Notes under the pieces: generated by a model
Told to the model about the DNA's origin: nothing
Database searches by the model: none
Seen by the model: only the letters and a program-made list of their open reading frames with translations
Part shown: piece by piece, positions 1,869 to 14,373 of the stretch
How positions within the stretch are numbered: position 1 is the first letter of the stretch
How the letters are laid out: every line of letters starts with the position of its first letter
Translations under genes and position numbers: made by a program
Assembly: GCA_046497275.1 (NCBI GenBank)
Contig: JAWOFX010000053.1
Coordinates: forward strand, 22,124 to 54,123
DNA length: 32,000 nucleotides
Source: Promethearchaeia archaeon
GTDB taxonomy: Archaea > Asgardarchaeota > Lokiarchaeia > Sigyniarchaeales > SOKP01
Direction: 5' to 3'

Positions 1869-2882
1869 ATGAAACTTTACCTAGTAGATAAAGGTGAACT
1901 GAAAGAAATCAATAAACCAGTGTTTTCAACTGGAGATGTGTATATCTTAGACAATAATCATACAATTTATGTTTGGATTGGAAGTAAATGTAGTGTTGAT
2001 GAAAAGACTTCTGGAGCAGCTCAAGCACGAACATTGGATCAAGAACGCGGGGGTGCTGCCAAAATAATTACTATAGATCAAGGACAAGAAACAGATGATT
2101 TCCTTAAATTAATAGCTGATATGGGAGCGATGAAGATCGTAAACAAAAACATCGCAAAAACTATGTTAAAGGATGTATACACTGGAGATTTTGCTGGATT
2201 TACTGAACATAAAAATGTTCTCTATCGTGTTAGCTCCGAAGAATTTGAAGATATTAACACGATGAAGATGGTACAAGTTCCTTACTCTGAGGACTCTCTG
2301 GATTCCGAAGATTGTTTTGTTATGGATTTAGGAACAAAAGTTTATGTATGGCAAGGAAATGCATGTAATGTTAAGGAAAAGGTGAAAGCGGGACAATGGG
2401 CAAGAAAGATAGATGTTGATAGAGCAGGATCTCAAAATGAAGAGATTTTTGAGGAAGGAGATGATATGCGATTCATTGAAGCTCTGAAAAAAGGAACAGA
2501 TTATAAAGAATCTGATGCGGTTCAGTTAGAAGCTGAATCAGTGATGGAAGAAGAACCTCCTGAACAAAAAATCGAGCGTGAACATAAATCAGAGATTCGA
2601 GATGCAGAACCAGAAGAAAGAGTGTCTATAAAGCCAGAAGCACCTAAGATTAAGGAATCTGCTGCTTCAAAAGCCAGTCCTGGAATACCTGGTCGACGGG
2701 ATGATTCCATCCTAACTATAGAAAAGACAGAGGGTAGGAGAGTATGTCCTAACTGTGGAGAAGAGAACCCGCATATGTTACATGAGAGCATCGATAAAAG
2801 CAATGTTATAATGGATTATCCACGCGTGTATGGAAAGAAGTATAAGTGTGGCTCTTGTGGAACCGAATGGCGTGAAAAGTAA
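1869..2882 (+). CDS. Asgard two-domain gelsolin-family protein with charged linker and C-terminal Zn ribbon
   Basis: Two gelsolin repeats: STGDVYILD...IYVWIGSKCSVDEK...DQGQETDDFL and LDSEDCFVMDLGTKVYVWQGNACNVKEK...EEGDDMRF. These are followed by a Glu/Pro/Lys-rich linker and CPNC...CGSC. SD-like GAGGA lies just upstream. Confidence 0.9.
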   Translation: MKLYLVDKGELKEINKPVFSTGDVYILDNNHTIYVWIGSKCSVDEKTSGAAQARTLDQERGGAAKIITIDQGQETDDFLKLIADMGAMKIVNKNIAKTMLKDVYTGDFAGFTEHKNVLYRVSSEEFEDINTMKMVQVPYSEDSLDSEDCFVMDLGTKVYVWQGNACNVKEKVKAGQWARKIDVDRAGSQNEEIFEEGDDMRFIEALKKGTDYKESDAVQLEAESVMEEEPPEQKIEREHKSEIRDAEPEERVSIKPEAPKIKESAASKASPGIPGRRDDSILTIEKTEGRRVCPNCGEENPHMLHESIDKSNVIMDYPRVYGKKYKCGSCGTEWREK

Positions 2883-3024
2883 ACCTAATTTATTTTTTTA
2901 ATTTTTTTGTTTTTCTAATTCTTATAAATTTTCAAATCTCGTCTTAGAAAGTTTATTCGTCTATATTTTTTATCCTTTATTTTTTTAAATTAGTTATTGA
3001 TATTTTTTAGTCTTTAATGGATTC
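2883..3024. terminator. T-rich interval between convergent genes, likely terminator(s)
   Basis: Long T-tracts on + (ttatttttttaattttttgtttttc) directly after the gelsolin stop; the next gene converges. Confidence 0.4.
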
Positions 3025-3519
3025 TTATAATTTAGATAGGAAATCTTCAATATCCTTAATAAATTTCAAAGTTCCTTGTTCAATCTCCTTCGTAAGGTTA
3101 TCTAAATCGCGAAAATTAGGGTTTTTAACTAAAATATACTCGACTATAGAATCAATTCCCTTTATATTCGAAGGAATGGTATATTTATTCAAATTACTTT
3201 CTTTAAATAAGTTCCAGTATTCTTCTTGAACAGTTTTATTAACGCCTACTAACCACACATCAAATCTGAACGCTTCGTAAAGGAAGACTATGGCAATTTT
3301 CAATTTTCGGGATTTTAATGTGGGTGTAAAGATGGCAAAATATGACATATCCATATAGCCTTGATATAAATTTCCGGATATGGTATATTCACGATAAGTG
3401 TTCATAAAATAGGTTCTTAAGGTCCTTAAGTATTCCATCAATCCTCTATATGCTTCAATGATGATGCCCTTGTCCAGCTGTTTTTTATATTCCATCATGT
3501 TTTCATGAAAAGAGTCCAT
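3025..3519 (-). CDS. Conserved hypothetical protein (resembles a family I recall from bacteria, DUF7000-like)
   Basis: 164-aa ORF with YQGYMDMSYF, LKIAIVF, FDVWLVGVNK and QEEYW blocks. The family name is from recall only. Confidence 0.55.
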   Translation of the reverse strand: MDSFHENMMEYKKQLDKGIIIEAYRGLMEYLRTLRTYFMNTYREYTISGNLYQGYMDMSYFAIFTPTLKSRKLKIAIVFLYEAFRFDVWLVGVNKTVQEEYWNLFKESNLNKYTIPSNIKGIDSIVEYILVKNPNFRDLDNLTKEIEQGTLKFIKDIEDFLSKL

Positions 3520-3628
3520 TTTTAATTCTCAACCAAAATCACTATTTATGTTGGATACCAAAAAGAAATAGAATTAAAATAATTATGTAATTTTTAAAGA
3601 TCCTAGTTAATTAAAAAAGAGATTGATA

Positions 3629-4792
3629 TTAAGATTTTAACGTTTCTCTTCGTAAGATTTTGATTCTTTTCTTTAAATCTATAATTTCTTTGTCCTTTTT
3701 TTCTACTTCAGATTCGAATTTTAGTTTTTCATCTTTTAATGTTTGAAGATCGGTAAGAATTTTATCTTCAATCTGTTCGGCTTCTGATATTTTATCCTGA
3801 AATTCTTTTTGTTTCTCTATTAACTCCTTAATGCGATTATCTTTTTCCTTTAACCTATATTGCATATTTGAATATTCTAATTCAAATTTTCCCGTTAATT
3901 CACCTGATTTATGCTGAGTCTGCTCGAGTTTATCTTCAAAGCGAGTTATTATTTCTTGATTTGTGATATCTTTCTGTTTTAACTTTTCGATTTCCAAGAC
4001 CAGTGATTCGATGCGTTCTTCTTTTTTTTCTAAATCTTTTTTTACTAGACTAAATGTTTCCATTTGCTGCTCTAATTCATTAATTTCTTTCTGAGCGTCT
4101 GAGAGAGAATTTTTCAATTCAAAAATGTCCTTTTCTTTTTGGGTAATTAGTTCATCTTTTTTTTCAACCAACACTTCTAATTTATCAAACTTCGATTTCG
4201 GTATAGTATCATTCTGTAAATATTGTAATTGTTCATTTAACTCTTTTATCTTCTCATCCTTTTCTTTTATTTTTTCTGAAAGATCACTTGTTTCAGCTGT
4301 TCCAGACCTTAATTCTTCAACAGTGTCTTCTAAACTATTGAGTTCATCTTGAATGTCGGTTATTTTATCTGTTTGATCCTGTATTATTCTTTCTTTTTCT
4401 TTTAGCCTTTCTTCTAAGGAGTCAATTATTTGATCTTTCTCTTCAATGGTGAGACTTAATTCTTCAAAATCCTCTACTTGAGATTCTTCCAATTCGGTGT
4501 GTTTCTCCAACTCTGCAATTTTTTCGACTAATTCTTGGTTATGAGTGGATAAGTTTTGAATCTTTGAGTGCAAATTTTCTTTTTCTTCTTTTAATTCAAT
4601 TACTCTTTGATTTAGTTCAGCATTTTGTTCTCGAAAAAGATTTATTTGTTCCATAAACTCTTCTTCATCTGATTCAATCTCTGGCTCTTCATCACTCTCT
4701 TCGACCCAACCAAGTGATGAAAGTGCATCCACAATCGGTTGATCCTCATCCTCCTCAGGGTCGTTCTTATCTTTATTATTTGGATTTTGCAT
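3629..4792 (-). CDS. Long coiled-coil protein with acidic N-terminal head
   Basis: About 330 aa of E/K/L/Q-rich heptad-like sequence with almost no Pro. No Walker A motif or hinge, so not an SMC ATPase. Acidic N-terminal ~45 aa. Confidence 0.8.
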   Translation of the reverse strand: MQNPNNKDKNDPEEDEDQPIVDALSSLGWVEESDEEPEIESDEEEFMEQINLFREQNAELNQRVIELKEEKENLHSKIQNLSTHNQELVEKIAELEKHTELEESQVEDFEELSLTIEEKDQIIDSLEERLKEKERIIQDQTDKITDIQDELNSLEDTVEELRSGTAETSDLSEKIKEKDEKIKELNEQLQYLQNDTIPKSKFDKLEVLVEKKDELITQKEKDIFELKNSLSDAQKEINELEQQMETFSLVKKDLEKKEERIESLVLEIEKLKQKDITNQEIITRFEDKLEQTQHKSGELTGKFELEYSNMQYRLKEKDNRIKELIEKQKEFQDKISEAEQIEDKILTDLQTLKDEKLKFESEVEKKDKEIIDLKKRIKILRRETLKS

Positions 4793-4874
4793 GGTTAAGG
4801 GAATTGTTATTTATAATATAACTAAAATATTTTCTTGTTTTTAAAGTAATATTAGGAACTTTCTCTAATAATCT

Positions 4875-5360
4875 TTACTCATTATAACTAGTAAAAACAT
4901 ATTTTCGATCAAGGAAAAATTTGGTGATATATCCAATAGAGAGAGCAACGATTAAACTTATTTCTAAGGGAGCAAAAAAGAAATTTGTCAATAGGAATTG
5001 GATTCCAATATTTTCAATGGTGGTAATAATCGCAAATCCAAAGTATTTCAAAAATTCCATTGAAGTTTCCTTGACTTTTACTTCTTTTTTTTGAAATACA
5101 AAAAATTTATCTAGAATATATTTAATAATATACGTGATTGCTACAGCAAAAATAGAACCTACTAATTCTCTCATGTTATAAGGTGAGAAAGCGCAATAAA
5201 AAGTATATATAAATCCTAAAGTACCAAAATTTGCGCAAATCCAAGGAGCTAAGACGATTTGGTTTAATTTTTGAATTAAATAATTTAAGAGAATCATTAA
5301 TAAAGCAAAAAATAGATACAGCGTTATTTGAGTTTTAATGTTATTATTGACTTCCTTCAT
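4875..5360 (-). CDS. GtrA-family membrane protein (putative lipid-linked glycan flippase)
   Basis: Four hydrophobic segments with the duplicated GtrA-type ends YILDKFFVF and FFLDRKYVF. Confidence 0.75.
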   Translation of the reverse strand: MKEVNNNIKTQITLYLFFALLMILLNYLIQKLNQIVLAPWICANFGTLGFIYTFYCAFSPYNMRELVGSIFAVAITYIIKYILDKFFVFQKKEVKVKETSMEFLKYFGFAIITTIENIGIQFLLTNFFFAPLEISLIVALSIGYITKFFLDRKYVFTSYNE

Positions 5361-5373
5361 TCAATACTCCTTC

Positions 5374-5700
5374 TTAAAATCGTTTTTGTAATTTTGCCCC
5401 ACAATTGGGACAATAATTTAAATTTGGATATTTTATTAATTCTCCACAATTAGGACAAGAATCATATAGTTTATTCTTTTCCGAAATATTTTCTCTCCTG
5501 AGATTTTTATCTTCGTTTCTAGAATCAAATAAAGATTGTTCTTGCTCATTTTCCTGAGAATTAGCATTATTGGATCGACATACTGAAGGTAGTACACAAA
5601 ATAGAGGAACCAGGAAAAGCTCCCCGAAGAAAAGGCTCAAAATAATACTAATTAAGGCGATAATTATCCCAATAATAATAGAAAGTATATTCCATTTCAT
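5374..5700 (-). CDS. Small membrane-anchored protein with C-terminal CPxCG...CPxCG zinc ribbon
   Basis: N-terminal hydrophobic hairpin, polar linker, then CPNCGELIKYPNLNYCPNCGAKL. Confidence 0.75.
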   Translation of the reverse strand: MKWNILSIIIGIIIALISIILSLFFGELFLVPLFCVLPSVCRSNNANSQENEQEQSLFDSRNEDKNLRRENISEKNKLYDSCPNCGELIKYPNLNYCPNCGAKLQKRF

Positions 5701-5764
5701 TATAATGATTAGTTAAGAGTTATTTAAAATAAAAAAATTTTGCTAGTCTTATTGGTTTAAGACT

Positions 5765-6400
5765 TTATAAATCCAATTTATCTTTCCAATTATCTTTCTT
5801 TTCTAATTTCTTAGTTTTAGTCCCTTCTTCGGGATAGTTTTTTGTTGAGCCTATATTTTCAGGTCTACTTGCTGTTGAATAATCCATAATCTCTGAACTT
5901 GTGTCTTGATTTGGCGATAACATCTGCATCATGCCTCCAGTTAAGCTGGATTTTTGCTTGCCGGTAGCTTTTCTATAAATATATTTAGATACAAAATATA
6001 TAACTGAAAAGCTTAATGAAAATAAGAGATAAACAGCTACCCATCCATCTCCGAATAGAGGTACTTTAAAAGGTAAAATTCCCGAATTATATGGAGCATA
6101 AATTAAACCTAATAAAGCAAATATACCAAGAAATATCACGCATCTAACACATAAAGGAACCATTTGCTTTTTCATCATATCCTTAGTTAATTCCATTGAT
6201 TCTGATTGGATCTGTTGCATCATTTGGGGATCTCCAATGAGTTGAGCGTTTTTCATTCTTTCTTGAATATTTCTCGCTTTTTCTTGTAGTTTACTCATCT
6301 CTTCTCTGTTTAATCCAAAGAAATGATTGAATAATAAGCCAATAAGAAACATTCCTAATGTTATAAAAAAGATTTGAAGTATAATTCCACCGACTGCCAT
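5765..6400 (-). CDS. EMC3/TMCO1 (DUF106, Oxa1-superfamily) membrane insertase homologue
   Basis: TM1, then a Met/Gln-rich cytosolic coiled-coil hairpin (EMSKLQEKARNIQERMK...MMQQIQSESMELTKDMMKKQMVP), TM2, LPFKVPLFG loop and TM3 GWVAVYLLFS, matching the DUF106 layout. Confidence 0.8.
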   Translation of the reverse strand: MAVGGIILQIFFITLGMFLIGLLFNHFFGLNREEMSKLQEKARNIQERMKNAQLIGDPQMMQQIQSESMELTKDMMKKQMVPLCVRCVIFLGIFALLGLIYAPYNSGILPFKVPLFGDGWVAVYLLFSLSFSVIYFVSKYIYRKATGKQKSSLTGGMMQMLSPNQDTSSEIMDYSTASRPENIGSTKNYPEEGTKTKKLEKKDNWKDKLDL

Positions 6401-6503
6401 ATAATATCACTATCTAATTAAATTCTGAATCAAAATTAAAATTTGCTATTATTTTAATTACATCTAACAATTTAAACTGAAAGGAATTTAAAATAATGAG
6501 AAT

Positions 6504-7583
6504 TTATCGTAAATTACCTCTAAAAATAGATTTAATATACTTCTCATAAATACTCGGCCATCTCGCAGTTAACGAGGCTACGATTGAACATCCTAATCGA
6601 CAATGATCACAGAAATCGTAAGAGTCGTGTTCGTTCATAATTTCAATCACTTTTTCTGACCTATAGATATCGGATAAAGGATATTTTAACGCATCAAAAC
6701 TAATAATCGGATGTATTTTGCATGGAAAATCGATAAAACCGTTATGCCGTATGAAAAGATAGGCTTCCGCCACATGGCATCGAATTTTGTCTTGATATTT
6801 TGGATTTTGCCCAAATCCGCCTAGCTCAATTGCCTCAATACTAAAAAGATCTGTGAGCACATTTTTATAATCCTTTCGTAGAGCTTTCACCAACTCTGCC
6901 CATAGATGAAGATCGGGGATTAAATCGTTCACCCCATTAGCCCGAAATTCCTTTCCATCATAATTTCTTATGATATCTTCACATGGATATAATTCAATTG
7001 AACAATCCAATTTTTCGGCTAATTCACAGATTTCGGGGAGATATTTTAGATTCGATTTCATAACATTAGTGCTAATTATCACATTGATATTATGCTTATG
7101 GGCCAATGCTATCGATTCTATAACTTTTTCAAATACGTTCAAACCTCTCATTCTATCATGATGTTTCGCATCAGGAAAATCTAAAGATAGTAAGATATAA
7201 TCTAATCCCGTTAGAGAATTATGTTTAAATAAAGTTGGAAGATGATATCCATTAGTTGCTAATCCCGTTGTTAAATTATTACGATATCCCGCATATCTTA
7301 TTAATTCTGGAAGATCCTCTCTAAGAGTAGGTTCCCCTCCCGTAAAGGAAAGTGCTACAACTCCTAAATCAACGATCTTATCTATTATAGATTTTACTTG
7401 ATTTGTATTCATTTCTGGATTTTTTAAAGACTTCGGGATTGAAGGGATGGCACAGAATTTACAATTTGCCATGCATTGTAAAGTTAATTCTATTTGAGCA
7501 GAGTAAGGCGTTTTAATATCAGAAAAGTAATTTACAATAAAGTTCTTCAAATAAGAAAGGCCTTTAAATTTCCAGAATTGCAT
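6504..7583 (-). CDS. Radical SAM protein with C-terminal SPASM/twitch-like Cys cluster
   Basis: CxxxCxxC (CMANCKFC), SFTGGEP and ATNG motifs; auxiliary Cys in RCH...FPC...CDHCRLGC. Confidence 0.9.
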   Translation of the reverse strand: MQFWKFKGLSYLKNFIVNYFSDIKTPYSAQIELTLQCMANCKFCAIPSIPKSLKNPEMNTNQVKSIIDKIVDLGVVALSFTGGEPTLREDLPELIRYAGYRNNLTTGLATNGYHLPTLFKHNSLTGLDYILLSLDFPDAKHHDRMRGLNVFEKVIESIALAHKHNINVIISTNVMKSNLKYLPEICELAEKLDCSIELYPCEDIIRNYDGKEFRANGVNDLIPDLHLWAELVKALRKDYKNVLTDLFSIEAIELGGFGQNPKYQDKIRCHVAEAYLFIRHNGFIDFPCKIHPIISFDALKYPLSDIYRSEKVIEIMNEHDSYDFCDHCRLGCSIVASLTARWPSIYEKYIKSIFRGNLR

Positions 7584-7721
7584 GATTTAGAGAATATTTA
7601 GATTAATAACTAAAATAACTTTAAATTTCAATTAAGATAGCTTTTTTGATTAATTTATACTATTGAGAGTATCGTTGGTTTTTAATAAAATTATTTTTTT
7701 ATGAAGTACTTTAGAGATTAA

Positions 7722-9533
7722 ATGATAAAACAAGCGAGAGAAGAGTTCTTTAAAAGAAGAGAACGGTTTTTATCTCATGAATATAAATCCAGTTTAAGAT
7801 TAGTATTGAGTTATTTGTGGGATTACAAATATCATTTCATTTTAGTTGTGTTCTTGGGAATAATCCAATCTATATTATTTTTATCCCTTCCCGTACTTGT
7901 TGGACCAGCATTAGATATATTGGTTGATCCATCTAGCTTGATTAGCAATGTTTTACCTTTGTTCCTCTTAATGATAAGTTTGCAAATTAGTGTGGGATTT
8001 GTTTTCGCCATTCGAATTTGGACGAATAGATGGGTTGGTACGAATATTATTTATAAATTAAGAAACGATTTATTTTCAACTATCCAATTAATGAGTTTTT
8101 CCTGGCTTGATGAGCATAAAACGGGAGATTTGCTTTCAAGAACTACGAGCGATGTAAATTTACTAAAGGAATTTTTGGGTAATAATTTGCAGCTATTCTT
8201 CAGACAAGCATTTACATTTATACTCAGTTTTTTAATTTTATTTCTAATAAATGTTGAATTGGCCTTATATATTATAGGCGTCTCTCCAGCGCTATTTTAT
8301 GTATTATTTAAATTTCGTAAGAAGATGAGACCAGTCTTTAAAAAATCAAGGGAGACTTATTCAGATTTGACTCATAAAATTCAAGAAAATGTTCAGGGTA
8401 TTAAGGTGGTGAAATCATTTTCGAGAGAAGACCATGAAATCAAAGAATTCACTAAAATTAATGATGATTACTATGAAGATTCTATGAATATAATTACCCT
8501 ACAAGCAACTTTCGATCCTATAATCTATTTAATTGATAATATTGCATTCTTGTTGGTCATTCTTGTTGGAGGAACTCTAGTTCTAAGAGGAAGAATGACA
8601 TTTGGAGAATTATTTTCGTTCATATTAGTTATGAATTTTTCTGTTGAACCACTTTATTTTGTAGCTAGGTTTTTAGCAAATATGCCCCAAATTAGCGAAA
8701 CAAGTGAGAGAGTTGCTCATATTTTGAAATCTGAAATCGATGTTAAAGAAAGTCTCGCAAAGAAGGAAATGCCTCCAATTAAAGGCAAGGTTGAGTTTAA
8801 TAATGTGTCATTTTCTTATGATTCAGATGGCAAGCAAAGAGTCTTAAAAGATGTTAATATTGCAGTTAATCCAGGTGAAACCATTGCAATTTTAGGCGCA
8901 ACTGGATCTGGAAAATCTACATTGATTAAATTAATCCCTCGTTTTTATGAGGTGACAGAGGGAGAAATTTTGATCGATGGAGTTAATATCAAAGATGTAT
9001 CTTTCAAATCATTACGAAAACAAATTGGCTATGTGTCTCAAGATCGTATCCTATTTTCTCGGAGTATTAAAGAGAATATTGCGTTTGGAAAAAGAGATAT
9101 TAATGAAAGAGCAATAAAAAATGCGGCTAAAATTGCTCATATTGATGAATTTATTGAAGATGAATTACCTAAAAAATATGAAACCAAAGTAGGAGAACGA
9201 GGAATGACATTAAGTGGAGGGCAAAAACAGCGTGTTGCTATTGCGAGAGCTCTTGCGGTTAAGCCACGCATACTTCTTTTGGACGATTGCTTCAGTTCAG
9301 TTGACGTTGACACGGAGTATGAGATTCAGAGATTATTAAAAGATGTAATTGAAGATACCACTACATTCTTAATTACACAACGCCTAAGCACAGTAAGACA
9401 TGCAGATAGAATTATGGTTATGGAAAATGGAAGAATTTCACAGTTAGGAAGTCATCAAGATTTAATGAACCAAGAAAATGGGATATACAAAAAGCTTTAT
9501 TTAACCTTAAAGGTGGAGGAAAGATCTCAATGA
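7722..9533 (+). CDS. Heterodimeric ABC exporter, subunit with degenerate catalytic residues (TM287/TmrB-like)
   Basis: TMD plus NBD. Walker A GATGSGKS and signature LSGGQKQ are present. Walker B LLLDD has Asp for the catalytic Glu, and ITQR has Gln for the switch His. Confidence 0.92.
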   Translation: MIKQAREEFFKRRERFLSHEYKSSLRLVLSYLWDYKYHFILVVFLGIIQSILFLSLPVLVGPALDILVDPSSLISNVLPLFLLMISLQISVGFVFAIRIWTNRWVGTNIIYKLRNDLFSTIQLMSFSWLDEHKTGDLLSRTTSDVNLLKEFLGNNLQLFFRQAFTFILSFLILFLINVELALYIIGVSPALFYVLFKFRKKMRPVFKKSRETYSDLTHKIQENVQGIKVVKSFSREDHEIKEFTKINDDYYEDSMNIITLQATFDPIIYLIDNIAFLLVILVGGTLVLRGRMTFGELFSFILVMNFSVEPLYFVARFLANMPQISETSERVAHILKSEIDVKESLAKKEMPPIKGKVEFNNVSFSYDSDGKQRVLKDVNIAVNPGETIAILGATGSGKSTLIKLIPRFYEVTEGEILIDGVNIKDVSFKSLRKQIGYVSQDRILFSRSIKENIAFGKRDINERAIKNAAKIAHIDEFIEDELPKKYETKVGERGMTLSGGQKQRVAIARALAVKPRILLLDDCFSSVDVDTEYEIQRLLKDVIEDTTTFLITQRLSTVRHADRIMVMENGRISQLGSHQDLMNQENGIYKKLYLTLKVEERSQ

Positions 9534-11398
9534 GTCCAGATCAATCTAATCAAGAAAATGAAAAATATAATATTAAGACTCTCTACATAATAAAGCGTTT
9601 GTTTAAATATATAGGATCTAAAAATCGAAAATATATTTTGCCGTTAGTTATAATCATTATTTTGAATATTTTGTTTAATTGGTTCTCTCCTCTCATCTTT
9701 CGATATTTGATTGATGAGGGATTGGGTGGATATTTTGGAACGGGAAGTGGTGGAGAAATAGAAATCATTATCACCGCAGGAGTGCTTTATTCTGTTGTCA
9801 CGATTTTAAGCGTGTTAACGAGAATCGCACAAGGATTTATAATACAAAAATTAGCAACAATTACAATGTTTAACTTAAGATATGAATTATTTACAAAATT
9901 CCAACTATTAGGATTAGATTATCATGACAATCCTGAAAAAACAGCAGGGAAAAAAGTATCTTATTTAACTAATGATGTCAATACTCTACAAGAGCTCATC
10001 AATAGTGGATTATTGGCAGTAATAGGCAATTTTTTTCTTATATTCGGTGCTGTAGTTTTTATGTTGATTTTAAGTCCTCAATTAACTCTAGTTGCCTTTC
10101 TTATTATTCCAATTATTTTTGTAGTTGGGGGCGTTGTTTTAGGCAAAGCCAGAAAATATTTTCAAGAATTAAGAGAACGAGTCTCAATAGTTACGAGTAC
10201 GTTAGATGAGTCTATAATGGGAATGAGAACTATACAATCTTTTGCTGTAGAGGAGGAAAGTTACGAAGAGTTTAATAACGCCACTTTAAAAGAACGAGAA
10301 ATAACCTTAAAATCAGCAAAATTATTTGCGATTATTCCTGGATTAGCCTTATTAATTATAAGTTCGGGGTTAATGGCATTATTTTTCACCGGAGGAATTT
10401 TAATTAGAGATGGAATAATTACAGTTGGCACATTAGTGGCTTTCATATTTTATATTTTCCAATTTTTTGAACCAATCATTGCGCTAATAGGGTTTTTTAC
10501 TTTACTACAAAACTCCATAGCAGCAGGAGCTCGGATGATCAATCTTTTAGATTTAGAGCCATCTATAAAAGAAAATAAAAATATTCAACAAATCGAAAAA
10601 ATAAGTGGAGAAATCAAATATAAAGAAGTTTCATTTCATTATGAAAAAGATCAACCCGTTTTGAAAAATATAATTGTCCATATTAAACCAGAAGAAAGAC
10701 TAGCCCTTGTTGGCTATACGGGAGCTGGAAAAAGTACTTTCATTAAATTACTCAGTAGGTTTTACGATCCAAATGAAGGGAGCATATATCTTGAAGGAAA
10801 AAATTTAAAAGTGTTGTCTTTAGACATAATTAGAAAAAATATGGGAATTGTTTTGCAGGAAAATTTTCTCTTTTCTACAACTATAATGGAGAATATACGA
10901 TATGGAAAACTCGAGGCATCAGATGAGGAAGTGATCGAAGCAGCCAAAAAAGTGAGTGCTCACGAATTTATAATGGAATTAGAAAACGGATATGAAACCT
11001 TAGTTGGTGAGCGTGGAAATAGACTATCCGAAGGTGAGAGACAATTAATCGCATTCGCAAGAGCATTGATAGCAGATCCCCCTATATTAATTTTAGATGA
11101 AGCAACCTCATCAATTGATCCGTATAGTGAATTACTTATACAACAAGCCTTAGAAACCCTATTAAAGGGCAGAACAAGCATATCTATCGCTCATAGATTA
11201 TCTACGATAATTAATTCTGACAGAATTTTGGTATTAGAAAAAGGTAAAATCATAGAAGAAGGATCTCATAAGGAACTAGTAGATAAAGGAGAATTTTATA
11301 AACACCTATACGACATGCAATTTAAGGATCCGTTCAAAAAGGAAAAAATTGAAGATAAAATTTCTATCGATGATTTAGATGAAGAAATTTTATCTTAA
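9530..11398 (+). CDS. Heterodimeric ABC exporter, consensus-site subunit (TM288/TmrA-like)
   Basis: GYTGAGKS, ILDEATSSID and IAHR are intact; signature is non-canonical LSEGERQ; 4-bp ATGA overlap with the partner gene. Confidence 0.92.
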   Translation: MSPDQSNQENEKYNIKTLYIIKRLFKYIGSKNRKYILPLVIIIILNILFNWFSPLIFRYLIDEGLGGYFGTGSGGEIEIIITAGVLYSVVTILSVLTRIAQGFIIQKLATITMFNLRYELFTKFQLLGLDYHDNPEKTAGKKVSYLTNDVNTLQELINSGLLAVIGNFFLIFGAVVFMLILSPQLTLVAFLIIPIIFVVGGVVLGKARKYFQELRERVSIVTSTLDESIMGMRTIQSFAVEEESYEEFNNATLKEREITLKSAKLFAIIPGLALLIISSGLMALFFTGGILIRDGIITVGTLVAFIFYIFQFFEPIIALIGFFTLLQNSIAAGARMINLLDLEPSIKENKNIQQIEKISGEIKYKEVSFHYEKDQPVLKNIIVHIKPEERLALVGYTGAGKSTFIKLLSRFYDPNEGSIYLEGKNLKVLSLDIIRKNMGIVLQENFLFSTTIMENIRYGKLEASDEEVIEAAKKVSAHEFIMELENGYETLVGERGNRLSEGERQLIAFARALIADPPILILDEATSSIDPYSELLIQQALETLLKGRTSISIAHRLSTIINSDRILVLEKGKIIEEGSHKELVDKGEFYKHLYDMQFKDPFKKEKIEDKISIDDLDEEILS

Positions 11399-11544
11399 TA
11401 ATATTAGAGAGAAGTTTTATTAATCGATTTTATTACATTTCTGATAAATTTGGTTTAATATTTTTAAAAAAAGAAATAAATAAAATGGATAAACTTTACG
11501 ATAAGTGATATTGTTTAATTTTACTTCAAAAAAGTTTTGATTAT

Positions 11545-11898
11545 TTATGTGGGGAATTCATACCCACATTTTTTACAGATTGTTTTTTTTGCATATATCT
11601 TTAAACCGCCCTGTTGGTGGAGGACGTGAGACTTATCTTCAACTTCGTTAAAATCCGTGCTACCGCAAGAGGGGCAAACTCTCCGACCCTCAATTGGGGG
11701 CTTTTCTTTTAATTTTTCCTCCTCTTCTTGCTTTTCAACCACAGCTGATGGTTTGACAGAACCTTGTTCTGTTTTTGAGGCTCTAGAAATTACACTGTTT
11801 CCAGAAGCCCCACCAGAATTAAGAAGTTTATCCAATTTAGTATTTATAGTCTCAAGTAGATCAATTACTTTCTCTTCAAATTCAGACATATTAATCAA
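11545..11898 (-). CDS. Small protein: N-terminal short coiled coil, flexible linker, C-terminal Zn ribbon paralogous to the gelsolin tail
   Basis: FEEKVIDLLETINTKLDKLL helix, G/S-rich linker, then EGRRVCPSCG...DKSHV...IYAKKTICKKCGYEF. Start may be the second Met (MSEFEE). Confidence 0.8.
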   Translation of the reverse strand: MINMSEFEEKVIDLLETINTKLDKLLNSGGASGNSVISRASKTEQGSVKPSAVVEKQEEEEKLKEKPPIEGRRVCPSCGSTDFNEVEDKSHVLHQQGGLKIYAKKTICKKCGYEFPT

Positions 11899-12036: not shown

Positions 12037-14373
12037 CTAATTTCTTTGTTTTACTGGTACAAAAATCTTAAAAAAATTCTGTTTTACGTTTATCCCACCT
12101 TGAAACTTTACAATAATTTTGTTACCTGAAAGAGTTGTAGCGTGAAGATTGTTATATGAATTACCAAATCCATTAAAAAGAACGATTTCTCCATCGCTCA
12201 AATTTGAATCTAACGTTTTTGAATCCTTAATCCGTAAGTACATTCCTGGTTTAATATCATCTAAACTATTTACATTATGTATACTTGAGAAAGAATAGGT
12301 TCCAGCATAATTCTCCACCACGTAATCATACAATTGTTTTAAGGGTTTTTTTTGGATTTCGATTATCTCTCCTTTAATACCTCGTTTTGCAATTAGTAAA
12401 GCAGCAATCGCATGATCTACAAATCCTTTACTCTTAACCTCGCTTACGAGTTCACCATTTTGTAATCTAAATAACGCTTCTTTTGTAGTTTTGAATTCAT
12501 CTACTAAAAAAATATTTGGAGGCTCAAAACTAGGTTTAGATAATTGTTTTTGATCTTCTTTCTCATTTGTTTCTATGGTATTATAATCAGAAATTATACA
12601 TTCATTATTCTCACAAGGGATATTAAAGTATTCAATTAAGAAATCGATGATGAAACTGGAACCAGGACCGTGTCCTACAAATATTTTATTAATAAAATCT
12701 TTCTCGTCACCGAGAAATAAGTCTAATTCTTCCCGAAGTTGTTTTTTCGCACTTTTTTGCGTTTTCGTATTTTTAATAGTGTCCTTGAGATTCACATACC
12801 ATAAGGATGGAAGTTCGGAAGGTTCGATTAGGCAAAACCCGAAATGTCTCGTCCCTGGATCAACAGAAAAAATTTTGTCTGTTTGGTCGAAATTAAAAAG
12901 ATTGATATCTGCTCTCCCATTTGAGATTTTCATCAAGGAATTAAAAAACTTTTCAAACTTTTGATTATTTACTTGGAGAAAAAAGACATTAGCTTGAGAT
13001 TGATATAACACTTCTATATCATATTTTTCAATAAGGTCATAAATTTCATGATAATTCTCTACCTTTACTAATACATCTTGATGAGGTATAATTTTAATTA
13101 ATCTCACTTTCTCAATTGCTTTTGCAACTGCTTGAGCAATGTCATCTTCATTCTTACCTGAAAGGATATCCACAAGGAGCCCATCAAGATGGAAAGCTTC
13201 ATAGGCTGTGGTGGCTCCTAAAATATCATACAATCTCTTATTTTTTTTACCTTGACGAGTTATAGTTATTTGTTTTTTAAATCGGGGAGCAATACGTACT
13301 CTAGCAGAATTATATCTTGCTTTAGTTTTTTTATTTATGGTAATTATTCCTTTCACTTTTGACTTAGTTATTTTAAAATTAATAAGAGTCTCAAGGTTTT
13401 CCTTAATAAAATCAAATTGTACATTTCCTAATACCTGAATAATAATTTCATTTTTCTCAATGTAATAGTCAAACGAGGGAATAATTTTTTTAAGCTTTTC
13501 AAGGATTTCAATTCCTGTTTTAAATTTTACTGGATCTTCAATTTCTATATAGAATTCTTTTCGTGGTTGAATTTCTGATAAAAGACTATCAATTTTAGGT
13601 GAGAAGAACTTTCCTTTATAATATTTTGTTCCCAAATCGGATTTCAATTCTATATTAAGTGAAGCTTGGACGATTTGTCCTTCAAACGCTTCTTGTAGAG
13701 GTTTTCCTTTTAGGGAAAATAATCTTCGTACACTTACTTTATCCGAAATATAACTATTAGATTTTAAAGTACCAGAAAAAATTCCAATATTAATTAATTC
13801 ACCAATTCCTTTTTTTATATCATACCCGAGAATAATGAATCCAAGATCTTGCTCATAATTTTCTCTATGCCTAACATAGAGACAGATCTTCTCTATTAAT
13901 TGCTCAATCCCAAAAAGTTCTTTTGCTGAAGTTTCTATAATAGGGTATTTTCTATCAGTTATCTTTCTTAGGTCTTTTTTGATCCTAGATAAATTAGCAT
14001 TATTAAGATCCATCTTAGTAGCGGCTATGATAATGGGTATTTCATTTTCAATAGCTTTTTCATATAACCAATAAGTTCGCGCTTGAAAACCTTCATTACC
14101 AGCTATTACTAAAACTAAAAGATCAGCGAATTCAAGTCCTAAAGCAATACTTCCTTTAAAATCAGCATGACCAGGACTATCTAAAAAATTAAGTAATATG
14201 TTTTTTTGCTTGAGAACAAATTGAATAACTTTCAAACTGACTGTTGTGCCATGATTGAGTTCATAATCAAGGTTATCAGGAAATTTTCCGATTATTGTGC
14301 TAATTAATGAACTCTTACCATGTTGAGAATGCCCCGCGACAAGAACATTAATAATCCTCTGTTTTTTTTCCAT
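12037..14373 (-). CDS. EF-G-like translational GTPase fused to YqgF/RuvX-like RNase H-fold domain and an unassigned C-terminal domain
   Basis: G1 GHSQHGKS, switch I ELNHGTTV, G3 DSPGH, G4 TKMD, G5 TSAK. EF-G domain III-like LEKLKKIIPSF...IIIQVLGNVQFDFIKENL; domain IV-like YNSARVRIAP; domain V-like FFNSLMKISNGRADINLF. Nuclease motifs SVDPGTRHFG, FVGHGPGS, LVDEFKTTKEA and VDHAIAALLI. Confidence 0.8.
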   Translation of the reverse strand: MEKKQRIINVLVAGHSQHGKSSLISTIIGKFPDNLDYELNHGTTVSLKVIQFVLKQKNILLNFLDSPGHADFKGSIALGLEFADLLVLVIAGNEGFQARTYWLYEKAIENEIPIIIAATKMDLNNANLSRIKKDLRKITDRKYPIIETSAKELFGIEQLIEKICLYVRHRENYEQDLGFIILGYDIKKGIGELINIGIFSGTLKSNSYISDKVSVRRLFSLKGKPLQEAFEGQIVQASLNIELKSDLGTKYYKGKFFSPKIDSLLSEIQPRKEFYIEIEDPVKFKTGIEILEKLKKIIPSFDYYIEKNEIIIQVLGNVQFDFIKENLETLINFKITKSKVKGIITINKKTKARYNSARVRIAPRFKKQITITRQGKKNKRLYDILGATTAYEAFHLDGLLVDILSGKNEDDIAQAVAKAIEKVRLIKIIPHQDVLVKVENYHEIYDLIEKYDIEVLYQSQANVFFLQVNNQKFEKFFNSLMKISNGRADINLFNFDQTDKIFSVDPGTRHFGFCLIEPSELPSLWYVNLKDTIKNTKTQKSAKKQLREELDLFLGDEKDFINKIFVGHGPGSSFIIDFLIEYFNIPCENNECIISDYNTIETNEKEDQKQLSKPSFEPPNIFLVDEFKTTKEALFRLQNGELVSEVKSKGFVDHAIAALLIAKRGIKGEIIEIQKKPLKQLYDYVVENYAGTYSFSSIHNVNSLDDIKPGMYLRIKDSKTLDSNLSDGEIVLFNGFGNSYNNLHATTLSGNKIIVKFQGGINVKQNFFKIFVPVKQRN

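Follow-up and report, generated by a model that had tools for sequence, protein, structure and literature searches.

In this study, we asked why two otherwise dissimilar proteins, encoded about 9 kb apart in the genome of a Promethearchaeia archaeon, end in the same small zinc-ribbon module, and what that module does for the proteins that carry it. The two genes, one for a two-domain gelsolin and the other for a small protein of 114 residues, lie in a window of 32,000 nucleotides (GenBank assembly GCA_046497275.1, contig JAWOFX010000053.1, positions 22,124 to 54,123 of the forward strand). A preliminary description of this window had read the module as an address tag that brings different cargos to a common receptor. 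Our analyses lead us to assign a probability of roughly 55% to the ribbon being a docking tag into the actin cytoskeleton, by direct or indirect contact. That idea is now indirectly supported, because six of the eight ribbon carriers of Candidatus Lokiarchaeum ossiferum are enriched in a Lokiactin co-immunoprecipitation. Both the module and the docking idea have been known since 2022, when Akil et al. (Commun Biol 5:890, PMC9433394) divided Loki2DGel into a pair of gelsolin domains, a “Link” and a “Zn” domain with the potential to bind zinc. They found the Zn domain only at C-termini, on gelsolins and on unrelated proteins, and also as free mini-proteins such as TFG08877.1, and they suggested a cellular feature or complex as its binding partner.

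The features of the two window genes on which the following analyses are based are these:

1869..2882, plus strand: two-domain gelsolin with linker and C-terminal Zn domain, 337 residues, an ortholog of Loki2DGel (Pfam Gelsolin).
1869..2483, plus strand: gelsolin domains D1 and D2, residues 1–205 (Pfam PF00626).
2484..2708, plus strand: acidic and Pro-rich linker, residues 206–280, variable in length and sequence (comparison of orthologs).
2709..2879, plus strand: Zn domain of the gelsolin, residues 281–337 (AlphaFold2, profile match and identity among orthologs).
11545..11889, minus strand: small helix-linker-ribbon protein, 114 residues, present in genomes of family f1 (start placed by ortholog starts).
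11818..11883, minus strand: conserved N-terminal amphipathic helix of the small protein, EFEEKVIDLLETINTKLDKLLN (AlphaFold2 and alignment).
11548..11691, minus strand: Zn domain of the small protein, EGRRVCPSCG ... CKKCGYEFPT (BLASTP against the gelsolin tail, clade membership and model confidence).

Pfam recognized Gelsolin (PF00626) in two stretches of the 337-residue protein at E 9e-29 and 99.6 bits against a cut-off of 21, which is above the gathering score, and orthologs of 315–371 residues were found in 15 related genomes. The linker comprises ~75 residues, and the position of the first Cys ranges from 271 to 327 between orthologs. The Zn domain runs from a lead strand, ILTIEK, through the knuckle CPNC and a long beta-hairpin bearing D309, Y321 and K323, to the second knuckle CGSC and the ending EWREK. 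Mean identity of the window gelsolin to 14 orthologs was 70% in D1, 77% in D2, 41% in the linker and 73% in the Zn domain. The difference between the last two values indicates that the Zn domain is kept by selection, in agreement with the protein-level selection that had been proposed from the DNA.

Both tail translations given in the preliminary description were re-read exactly, and its view of them as homologous copies of a distinctive module held up. The two tails align with 21 identities in 49 positions (43%; BLASTP E 8e-11), and the synonymous differences noted earlier (agg/cgg, gta/gtt, tgt/tgc, cct/ccc) are seen in the DNA alignment. The similarity reflects homology and not chance, because a profile made from the two tails found four further copies in the 3.85-Mb genome at E 2.6e-28 to 1.7e-6, giving six in total. 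Both window copies do stand at the extreme C-terminus behind a linker, as had been described, with variable linkers and with 4–7 residues between the last Cys and the stop. The four additional copies in this genome are:

a free ribbon of 63 residues, 83–84% identical to the gelsolin tail, on contig C186 (another contig than that of the gelsolin);
a free ribbon of 55 residues;
a 305-residue carrier in which a Pro-rich segment and a coiled coil accompany the ribbon;
a 303-residue coiled-coil carrier whose ribbon is broken by an insert.

The insert in the 303-residue carrier (L006:1609-1638; contig C17 of this genome, G000, about 13150-13179) is 30 nucleotides long and contains an in-frame TAA and an 8-bp hairpin (TGTTTTCT-AACTC-AGAAAACA), and taking it out restores ...YAKKHVCKKCGYEF. 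The L. ossiferum ortholog of this carrier (L118) is uninterrupted and was assigned to GNAMCCOK_04980, an abundant protein that is enriched in the co-immunoprecipitation.

In a tree of 154 tails, which is built on few columns and leaves many forks unresolved, a branch with 98% support sets apart an 89-member clade (YPRxYGKK...EWR) that includes the gelsolin tail and the free 63-residue copy. Outside that clade are the single copies of non-Loki Asgards, a coiled-coil type (IPKPIYAKK...CTKCGYEF) and a seven-member clade with the small protein of the window. Because the 98% branch separates them, the two window tails are old paralogs, as had been suspected. Free and gelsolin-borne ribbons are each other's closest paralogs. 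Concerted evolution of these two forms was considered and set aside, since an identity of 74.5% within genomes against 69.8% between genomes, in an unresolved tree, is too weak a signal.

The Zn domain is predicted to be a single-zinc ribbon of ~57 residues with a (CxxC)2 site and a long beta-hairpin. An AlphaFold2 model of a 60-residue tail, based on an alignment of 149 family tails, has a mean predicted local distance difference test score (pLDDT) of 89.4 and strands at residues 5–7, 27–38, 43–50 and 56–59. In order, these give the lead strand ILTIEK before GRR, the knuckle CPxCG, the hairpin 27–38/43–50, the knuckle CxxCG and a final strand. The predicted zinc site is present in both window proteins, as CPNC...CGSC in the gelsolin and CPSC...CKKC in the small protein. 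In the numbering of the model, the four Cys and D32 are invariant in the 149 tails, and the Pro of CPxCG, Y44 and K46 are at least 90% conserved. Apart from that Pro, the conserved non-Cys positions all sit on the hairpin, which forms an extended loop bearing Y44, and they usually have Lys neighbors (E-x-x-D-K and Y-x-K-K). A profile of the 149 tails, headed by the two from the window, matched residues 279–333 of Loki2DGel (PDB 7whg chain G) at E 9.6e-24.

No Pfam-A or NCBIfam model reached its cut-off on the window tails, on the free forms of the same genome or on five non-Loki free proteins. The TFIIS-type models stayed below theirs (PF01096 with 13.9 bits against 21; TFS_arch, TIGR01384, with 17.1–17.7 against 64.75). 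Searches of solved structures likewise returned generic ribbons only, none of them significant. TFIIS, Rpb9 and RPA12 ribbons led the Foldseek matches, the top one, 1tfi, being weak (E 0.085, template modeling score 0.50), and VIA-align gave Z 3.9 for the NrdR ribbon and Z 3.1–3.4 for TFIIS. Since no model reaches its cut-off and the fold matches are generic, the Zn domain does not collapse into a described, curated ribbon family. The fold comparison suggested in the preliminary description therefore yielded TFIIS, Rpb9 and NrdR as nearest neighbors of a generic ribbon, but no significant match. Public annotation of the family is “hypothetical” or consists of mistaken automatic names (S27AE, L37E, Elf1, transposase).

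A link between the Zn domain and actin came from co-immunoprecipitation data in a preprint on crawling motility (10.1101/2025.11.30.690169, Supplemental Table 2; Nature version PMC13716822), for which three formaldehyde-fixed cultures and an immunoglobulin G (IgG) control were used. The text of that preprint (10.1101/2025.11.30.690169) mentions neither zinc nor ribbon. After exclusion of contaminants, the rows, about 1,500 in number, were sorted by actin/IgG ratio. The genome of L. ossiferum (G382) encodes eight ribbon carriers, one with a gelsolin domain: the gelsolin 2DGel1, free ribbons of 62 and 57 residues, a 404-residue coiled-coil protein, a 374-residue Pro-rich protein, and proteins of 330, 341 and 511 residues. 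Six of the eight were found in the top 54 rows, five of these six being without gelsolin domains:

rank 6, GNAMCCOK_04136, 2DGel1: log2 actin/IgG 3.97, adjusted p 0.015;
rank 9, GNAMCCOK_05159, 43.78 kDa: log2 actin/IgG 3.85, adjusted p 0.066;
rank 18, GNAMCCOK_03900, 6.54 kDa, UYP47583.1: log2 actin/IgG 2.53, adjusted p 0.004;
rank 31, GNAMCCOK_04980, 44.64 kDa, 538 spectra: log2 actin/IgG 2.10, adjusted p 0.001;
rank 47, GNAMCCOK_00612, 36.98 kDa, UYP44320.1: log2 actin/IgG 1.91, adjusted p 0.012;
rank 54, GNAMCCOK_04132, 7.37 kDa, UYP47813.1: log2 actin/IgG 1.74, adjusted p 0.029.

The adjusted p is below 0.05 for five of the six. Finding six of the eight among the first 54 rows has a hypergeometric p of 4e-8 to 3e-11, and with the gelsolin left out (five of seven carriers) the value is 9e-7 or lower. 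UYP47813.1, UYP47583.1 and UYP44320.1 were assigned to their rows from their molecular weights, their order in the genome and the exact offset of their accessions, taken from the paper's identifier table, and an exact look-up confirmed the three accessions. These data represent association in cross-linked cells, short of proof of direct binding.

Four proteins rank above Lokiactin itself in the same data (GNAMCCOK_00333, 02751, 04250 and 04085) and are not discussed in the parts of the paper's text that we read, and several 13-kDa proteins are also enriched (GNAMCCOK_01291, 01578 and 04077). All of these are candidate receptors or further actin-associated proteins.

The Zn domain had not been reliably found beyond Loki (PMC9433394). 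In our search of 1.8 billion representative proteins, the profile matched 511 clusters at E<=1e-3, of which 206 reached E<=1e-10. Among the 149 representatives listed, the great majority have their last Cys 4–21 residues from the end. Within the window's order, all 41 sampled genomes have the ribbon, in 3–12 copies each. Across the phylum, matches were found in 156 of 301 sampled genomes. Several copies occur in families f1 and f2 of the window's order, and positive families outside its class have exactly one copy per genome (E mostly 1e-10 to 1e-16; one weak second match in G046). The five non-Loki copies examined are free proteins of 48–66 residues that mostly keep D-K and Y-x-K-K. Named non-Loki records belong to Jordarchaeia and Freyarchaeia, and when all species genomes were scanned for the non-Loki form, only records of these two groups and two doubtful bacterial matches came up. 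The Asgard-wide single free copy extends the range of the domain as stated in 2022. In addition, because other Asgard families carry one free copy of 48–66 residues, the distribution suggests a small free ancestral protein that was later expanded and fused.

The fusion partners in our list are mostly coiled coils, together with gelsolin, Pro-rich tracts and membrane proteins. Among 99 representatives of at least 150 residues, non-ribbon Pfam matches were almost all to coiled-coil models (ATG16, TMF, DivIC, crescentin), and ten of the longest carriers had no real domain match. As read from their sequences, P0016 is a multi-pass membrane carrier and P0046 a membrane carrier with Pro-rich repeats. 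The N-terminal domain of P0138 appears Ras-like by eye only, and some carriers have two ribbons. A free ribbon gene lies beside the gelsolin-ribbon gene, or at most ~4 kb from it, at G013:C27:441581-442163, G023:C18:7591-8173 and G032:C1:4004442-4004920 and at L115/L116 in L. ossiferum.

The small protein of the window is an undescribed carrier type of the Zn domain family. Its open frame has 117 residues, and its true start is the ATG at 11889-11887, giving 114 residues, because the orthologs (106–141 residues) all open with MSEFE there. AlphaFold2, run with seven orthologs, predicted a single 22-residue helix (residues 6–27 of the 117-residue frame; pLDDT 76–91), a disordered linker and the ribbon (pLDDT 80–90). 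The oligomerizing coiled coil that had been proposed for this protein was not borne out, as the model has that one helix only. The family shares a layout of conserved helix (in six of seven members; consensus MSEFEEKVLDLLEKINxKLDxLL), variable Ser/Pro linker, conserved acidic stretch and ribbon, and among the 41 sampled genomes of the order it is seen almost only in family f1. One ortholog (G019:C35:12421-12588, plus strand) has a TGA inside the ribbon match, which could stem from an error, from pseudogenization or from codon recoding.

If the ribbon is a docking tag, its ancestor would have been a single-copy, free-standing protein of ~50 residues in many Asgard lineages. In the window's order the ribbon would have multiplied and joined other proteins, in every case as the very last domain after a flexible linker: the two-domain gelsolin, numerous coiled-coil and Pro-rich proteins, and some membrane proteins. 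A single ligand, shared by the carriers and either part of the Lokiactin cytoskeleton or attached to it, may be what the conserved face of the hairpin binds. Different cargos would thus be brought to actin structures, with the free ribbons occupying the same site, and the small protein of the window would carry the conserved amphipathic helix of its N-terminus there. A more specific version is tentative, and we consider it possible rather than probable. In that version, the ribbon binds the Lokiactin filament directly, or one filament-bound receptor, and is an archaeal functional counterpart of the villin headpiece. Having originated as a free Asgard protein of ~50 residues, it would have spread in the window's order to gelsolin, coiled-coil, Pro-rich and membrane proteins, and the free copies would be competitors that tune the cargo on actin.

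Several observations weigh against a role in docking to actin. The purified Zn domain of Loki2DGel did not co-sediment with rabbit F-actin, and the Loki tail tagged with green fluorescent protein (GFP) was diffuse and uniformly distributed in human cells (PMC9433394). The cells used for the co-immunoprecipitation were formaldehyde-fixed, so the association of the carriers with actin may be indirect, and one of the enriched carriers is Pro-rich and could come down via profilin. The assignments of GNAMCCOK_04980 and GNAMCCOK_05159 were by molecular weight and genome order only, and UYP46080.1 and the 511-residue carrier were not found among the co-immunoprecipitation rows listed. No ortholog of the small helix-ribbon protein was found in L. 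ossiferum, leaving the co-immunoprecipitation silent on that protein itself. Lastly, the ancestral free gene on Jordarchaeia-type contigs has unrelated housekeeping neighbors and no conserved partner, and its surroundings provide no functional hint. The address tag of the preliminary description, an idea already present in the 2022 paper (PMC9433394), is backed indirectly, by the enrichment of carriers that include five without a gelsolin domain, whereas the isolated Zn domain was negative with rabbit F-actin.

Other ligands must be weighed as well. The ribbon could be a peripheral membrane anchor, FYVE-like as on EEA1-type tethers, whose basic and aromatic hairpin inserts in the archaeal membrane and holds gelsolin and coiled coils at the cortex where actin lies. 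Tyr, Arg and Lys abound at the tip of the hairpin and in its second strand (YPRVYGKKYK), a coiled coil with a C-terminal zinc module is the layout of membrane tethers such as EEA1, and cortical co-localization could also yield a cross-linked co-immunoprecipitation with actin. We nonetheless regard this as unlikely, as the ribbon also ends multi-pass membrane proteins that need no anchor (P0016, P0046). In addition, the Zn domain has four Cys, one zinc site and no FYVE motifs, against the eight zinc ligands and two zinc ions of a FYVE finger. In human cells the GFP-tagged Loki tail had a diffuse distribution (PMC9433394), although the lipids of archaea differ. The structural neighbors point in another direction, to a nucleic-acid-binding or polymerase- or ribosome-binding ribbon of the TFIIS/Rpb9/NrdR type that ties its carriers to RNA, DNA or the transcription and translation machinery. 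The nearest solved folds are the ribbons of TFIIS, Rpb9, RPA12 and NrdR, there are weak sub-threshold matches to TFS_arch and Zn_ribbon_TFIIS, and the calculated isoelectric point of the Loki Zn domain is a basic 8.8 (Akil et al., PMC9433394). Automatic names from the Joint Genome Institute include “RNA-binding Zn-ribbon” and “ribosomal protein S27AE.” However, the structural matches are weak (Foldseek E of at least 0.085, Z of at most 3.9) and of the kind that any zinc ribbon gives, all curated models stay below their cut-offs, and the acidic hairpin motif of TFIIS was not seen in the tails. Moreover, the ribbon has gelsolin, coiled coils and membrane proteins as its fusion partners, the proteins that bear it are enriched with Lokiactin, and no nuclear localization of the GFP-tagged Loki tail was seen in U2OS cells (PMC9433394). 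On balance, this type of ligand is also unlikely.

Alternatively, ribbons might pair with one another, homotypically or heterotypically, and so cross-link their carriers into a network that free ribbons cap and that reaches actin only via its gelsolin member. This would suit the free ribbon genes that adjoin the gelsolin gene in G013, G023, G032, G038 and L. ossiferum, the close paralogy of free and gelsolin-borne ribbons, and the joint recovery of carriers, free ones included, in the co-immunoprecipitation. It appears improbable, since free and gelsolin ribbons are only slightly more alike within a genome (74.5%) than between genomes (69.8%), and non-Loki Asgards with a single free copy and no fusions argue for an external ligand in the ancestor. 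Less credible still is a ubiquitin- or ESCRT-binding finger (ESCRT, endosomal sorting complex required for transport), similar to the NZF of Vps36, that links the carriers to the Asgard ubiquitin/ESCRT system. Asgard ESCRT-I/II-like proteins do carry several zinc ribbons (Makarova et al.), and P0008 and P0022 pair ribbons with a domain that is winged-helix-like by eye. In opposition to this, the winged-helix-like region of P0008 is unrecognized by Pfam, and no ESCRT genes lie beside ribbon carriers at the six loci examined in this genome.

To our knowledge, the established Asgard actin regulators are profilins and gelsolins only. If the docking tag is real, it would provide a list of candidate actin-associated proteins, 3–12 per genome in the order, and would recruit to the Lokiactin cytoskeleton coiled-coil, Pro-rich and membrane proteins that are otherwise anonymous. 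The Zn domain is also one small, easily made domain with which a receptor could be fished. What is new here is the undescribed carrier type, the Asgard-wide single-copy form and a reading of the co-immunoprecipitation that makes the docking idea testable.

The spacing of the two ribbon genes, noted in the preliminary description, proved to be ordinary family-wide synteny. The genes between them include one conserved block:

3629..7583, minus strand: co-directional genes for a 387-residue unknown protein, a GtrA-like protein, a 108-residue unknown protein, an EMC3/YidC-like protein and a radical S-adenosylmethionine (SAM) protein (Pfam).

The block, which is outside the module itself, maintains the linkage of the two ribbon genes throughout the family. 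Six relatives (G016, G010, G018, G022, G007 and G012) share the order aminotransferase, gelsolin-ribbon, 387-residue unknown, GtrA-like, (108-residue), EMC3/YidC-like, radical SAM and small ribbon protein. The pair of ATP-binding cassette transporter genes, a variable insert between the two ribbon genes, and the gene for a 778-residue GTPase are present in only some relatives. A special meaning of the 9-kb distance was rejected in view of this single syntenic block with its variable inserts.

The 778-residue protein (12037-14373, minus strand) begins with a GTPase domain (EF-Tu, Ras and Roc models), and its remaining ~600 residues have no Pfam match. Of the 41 related genomes, it was found in only 13, in most cases immediately upstream of the gene for the small ribbon protein. 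We considered it as a partner of that gene, to which it is adjacent in G000, G001, G002, G012, G014 and G024, and rejected it on account of its presence in 13 of 41 genomes and its separate location in G022. A DUF7000 gene right after the gelsolin (3025-3519, minus strand; E 1.4e-56) looks like a recent insertion, because the block lacks it in every one of the six relatives. The 387-residue protein (3629-4792, minus strand), which has no real Pfam domain and is convergent to the gelsolin, is kept in all six with 39–49% identity. Elsewhere in the genome, two Lokiactin paralogs (L054 and L055, contigs C156 and C84) are 81% identical, and there are three more distant actin-family proteins. The main Lokiactin has 85–99% identity across the order.

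Among known systems, the villin headpiece is similar in its workings only: it is a small C-terminal module attached by a flexible linker to a gelsolin-family core and is also found on unrelated proteins. The headpiece gives villin a second contact with the actin filament. It is a zinc-free three-helix module with no homology to the ribbon, and direct filament binding has been shown for it, whereas the ribbon was negative with rabbit F-actin. The best structural neighbors, TFIIS domain III and the Rpb9-RPA12-TFS ribbons (PF01096), have one zinc and two CxxC knuckles and share with the Zn domain a three-stranded sheet, a long hairpin and a C-terminal “CG..W.” The Zn domain differs from these in its sub-threshold scores, its longer spacer (28–30 residues), the acidic catalytic hairpin motif, which was not seen, and its other carriers. 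EEA1-type tethers are built like the commonest carriers, in which a long coiled coil is followed by a flexible segment and then, at the C-terminus, by a small zinc module that would set location. The FYVE finger has two zinc ions and eight Cys and recognizes phosphatidylinositol 3-phosphate, whereas the Zn domain is a ribbon with four Cys that also terminates integral membrane proteins. The closest counterpart is the Zn domain of Loki2DGel and MKD1-2DGel, which is of the same family as the window tails and, like them, has a (CxxC)2 site, a Tyr loop and a C-terminal position behind a linker. Relative to the 2022 paper, from which the helix-linker-ribbon subfamily and data on in vivo association are absent, the family described here also extends, as a single free copy per genome, to many other Asgard families.

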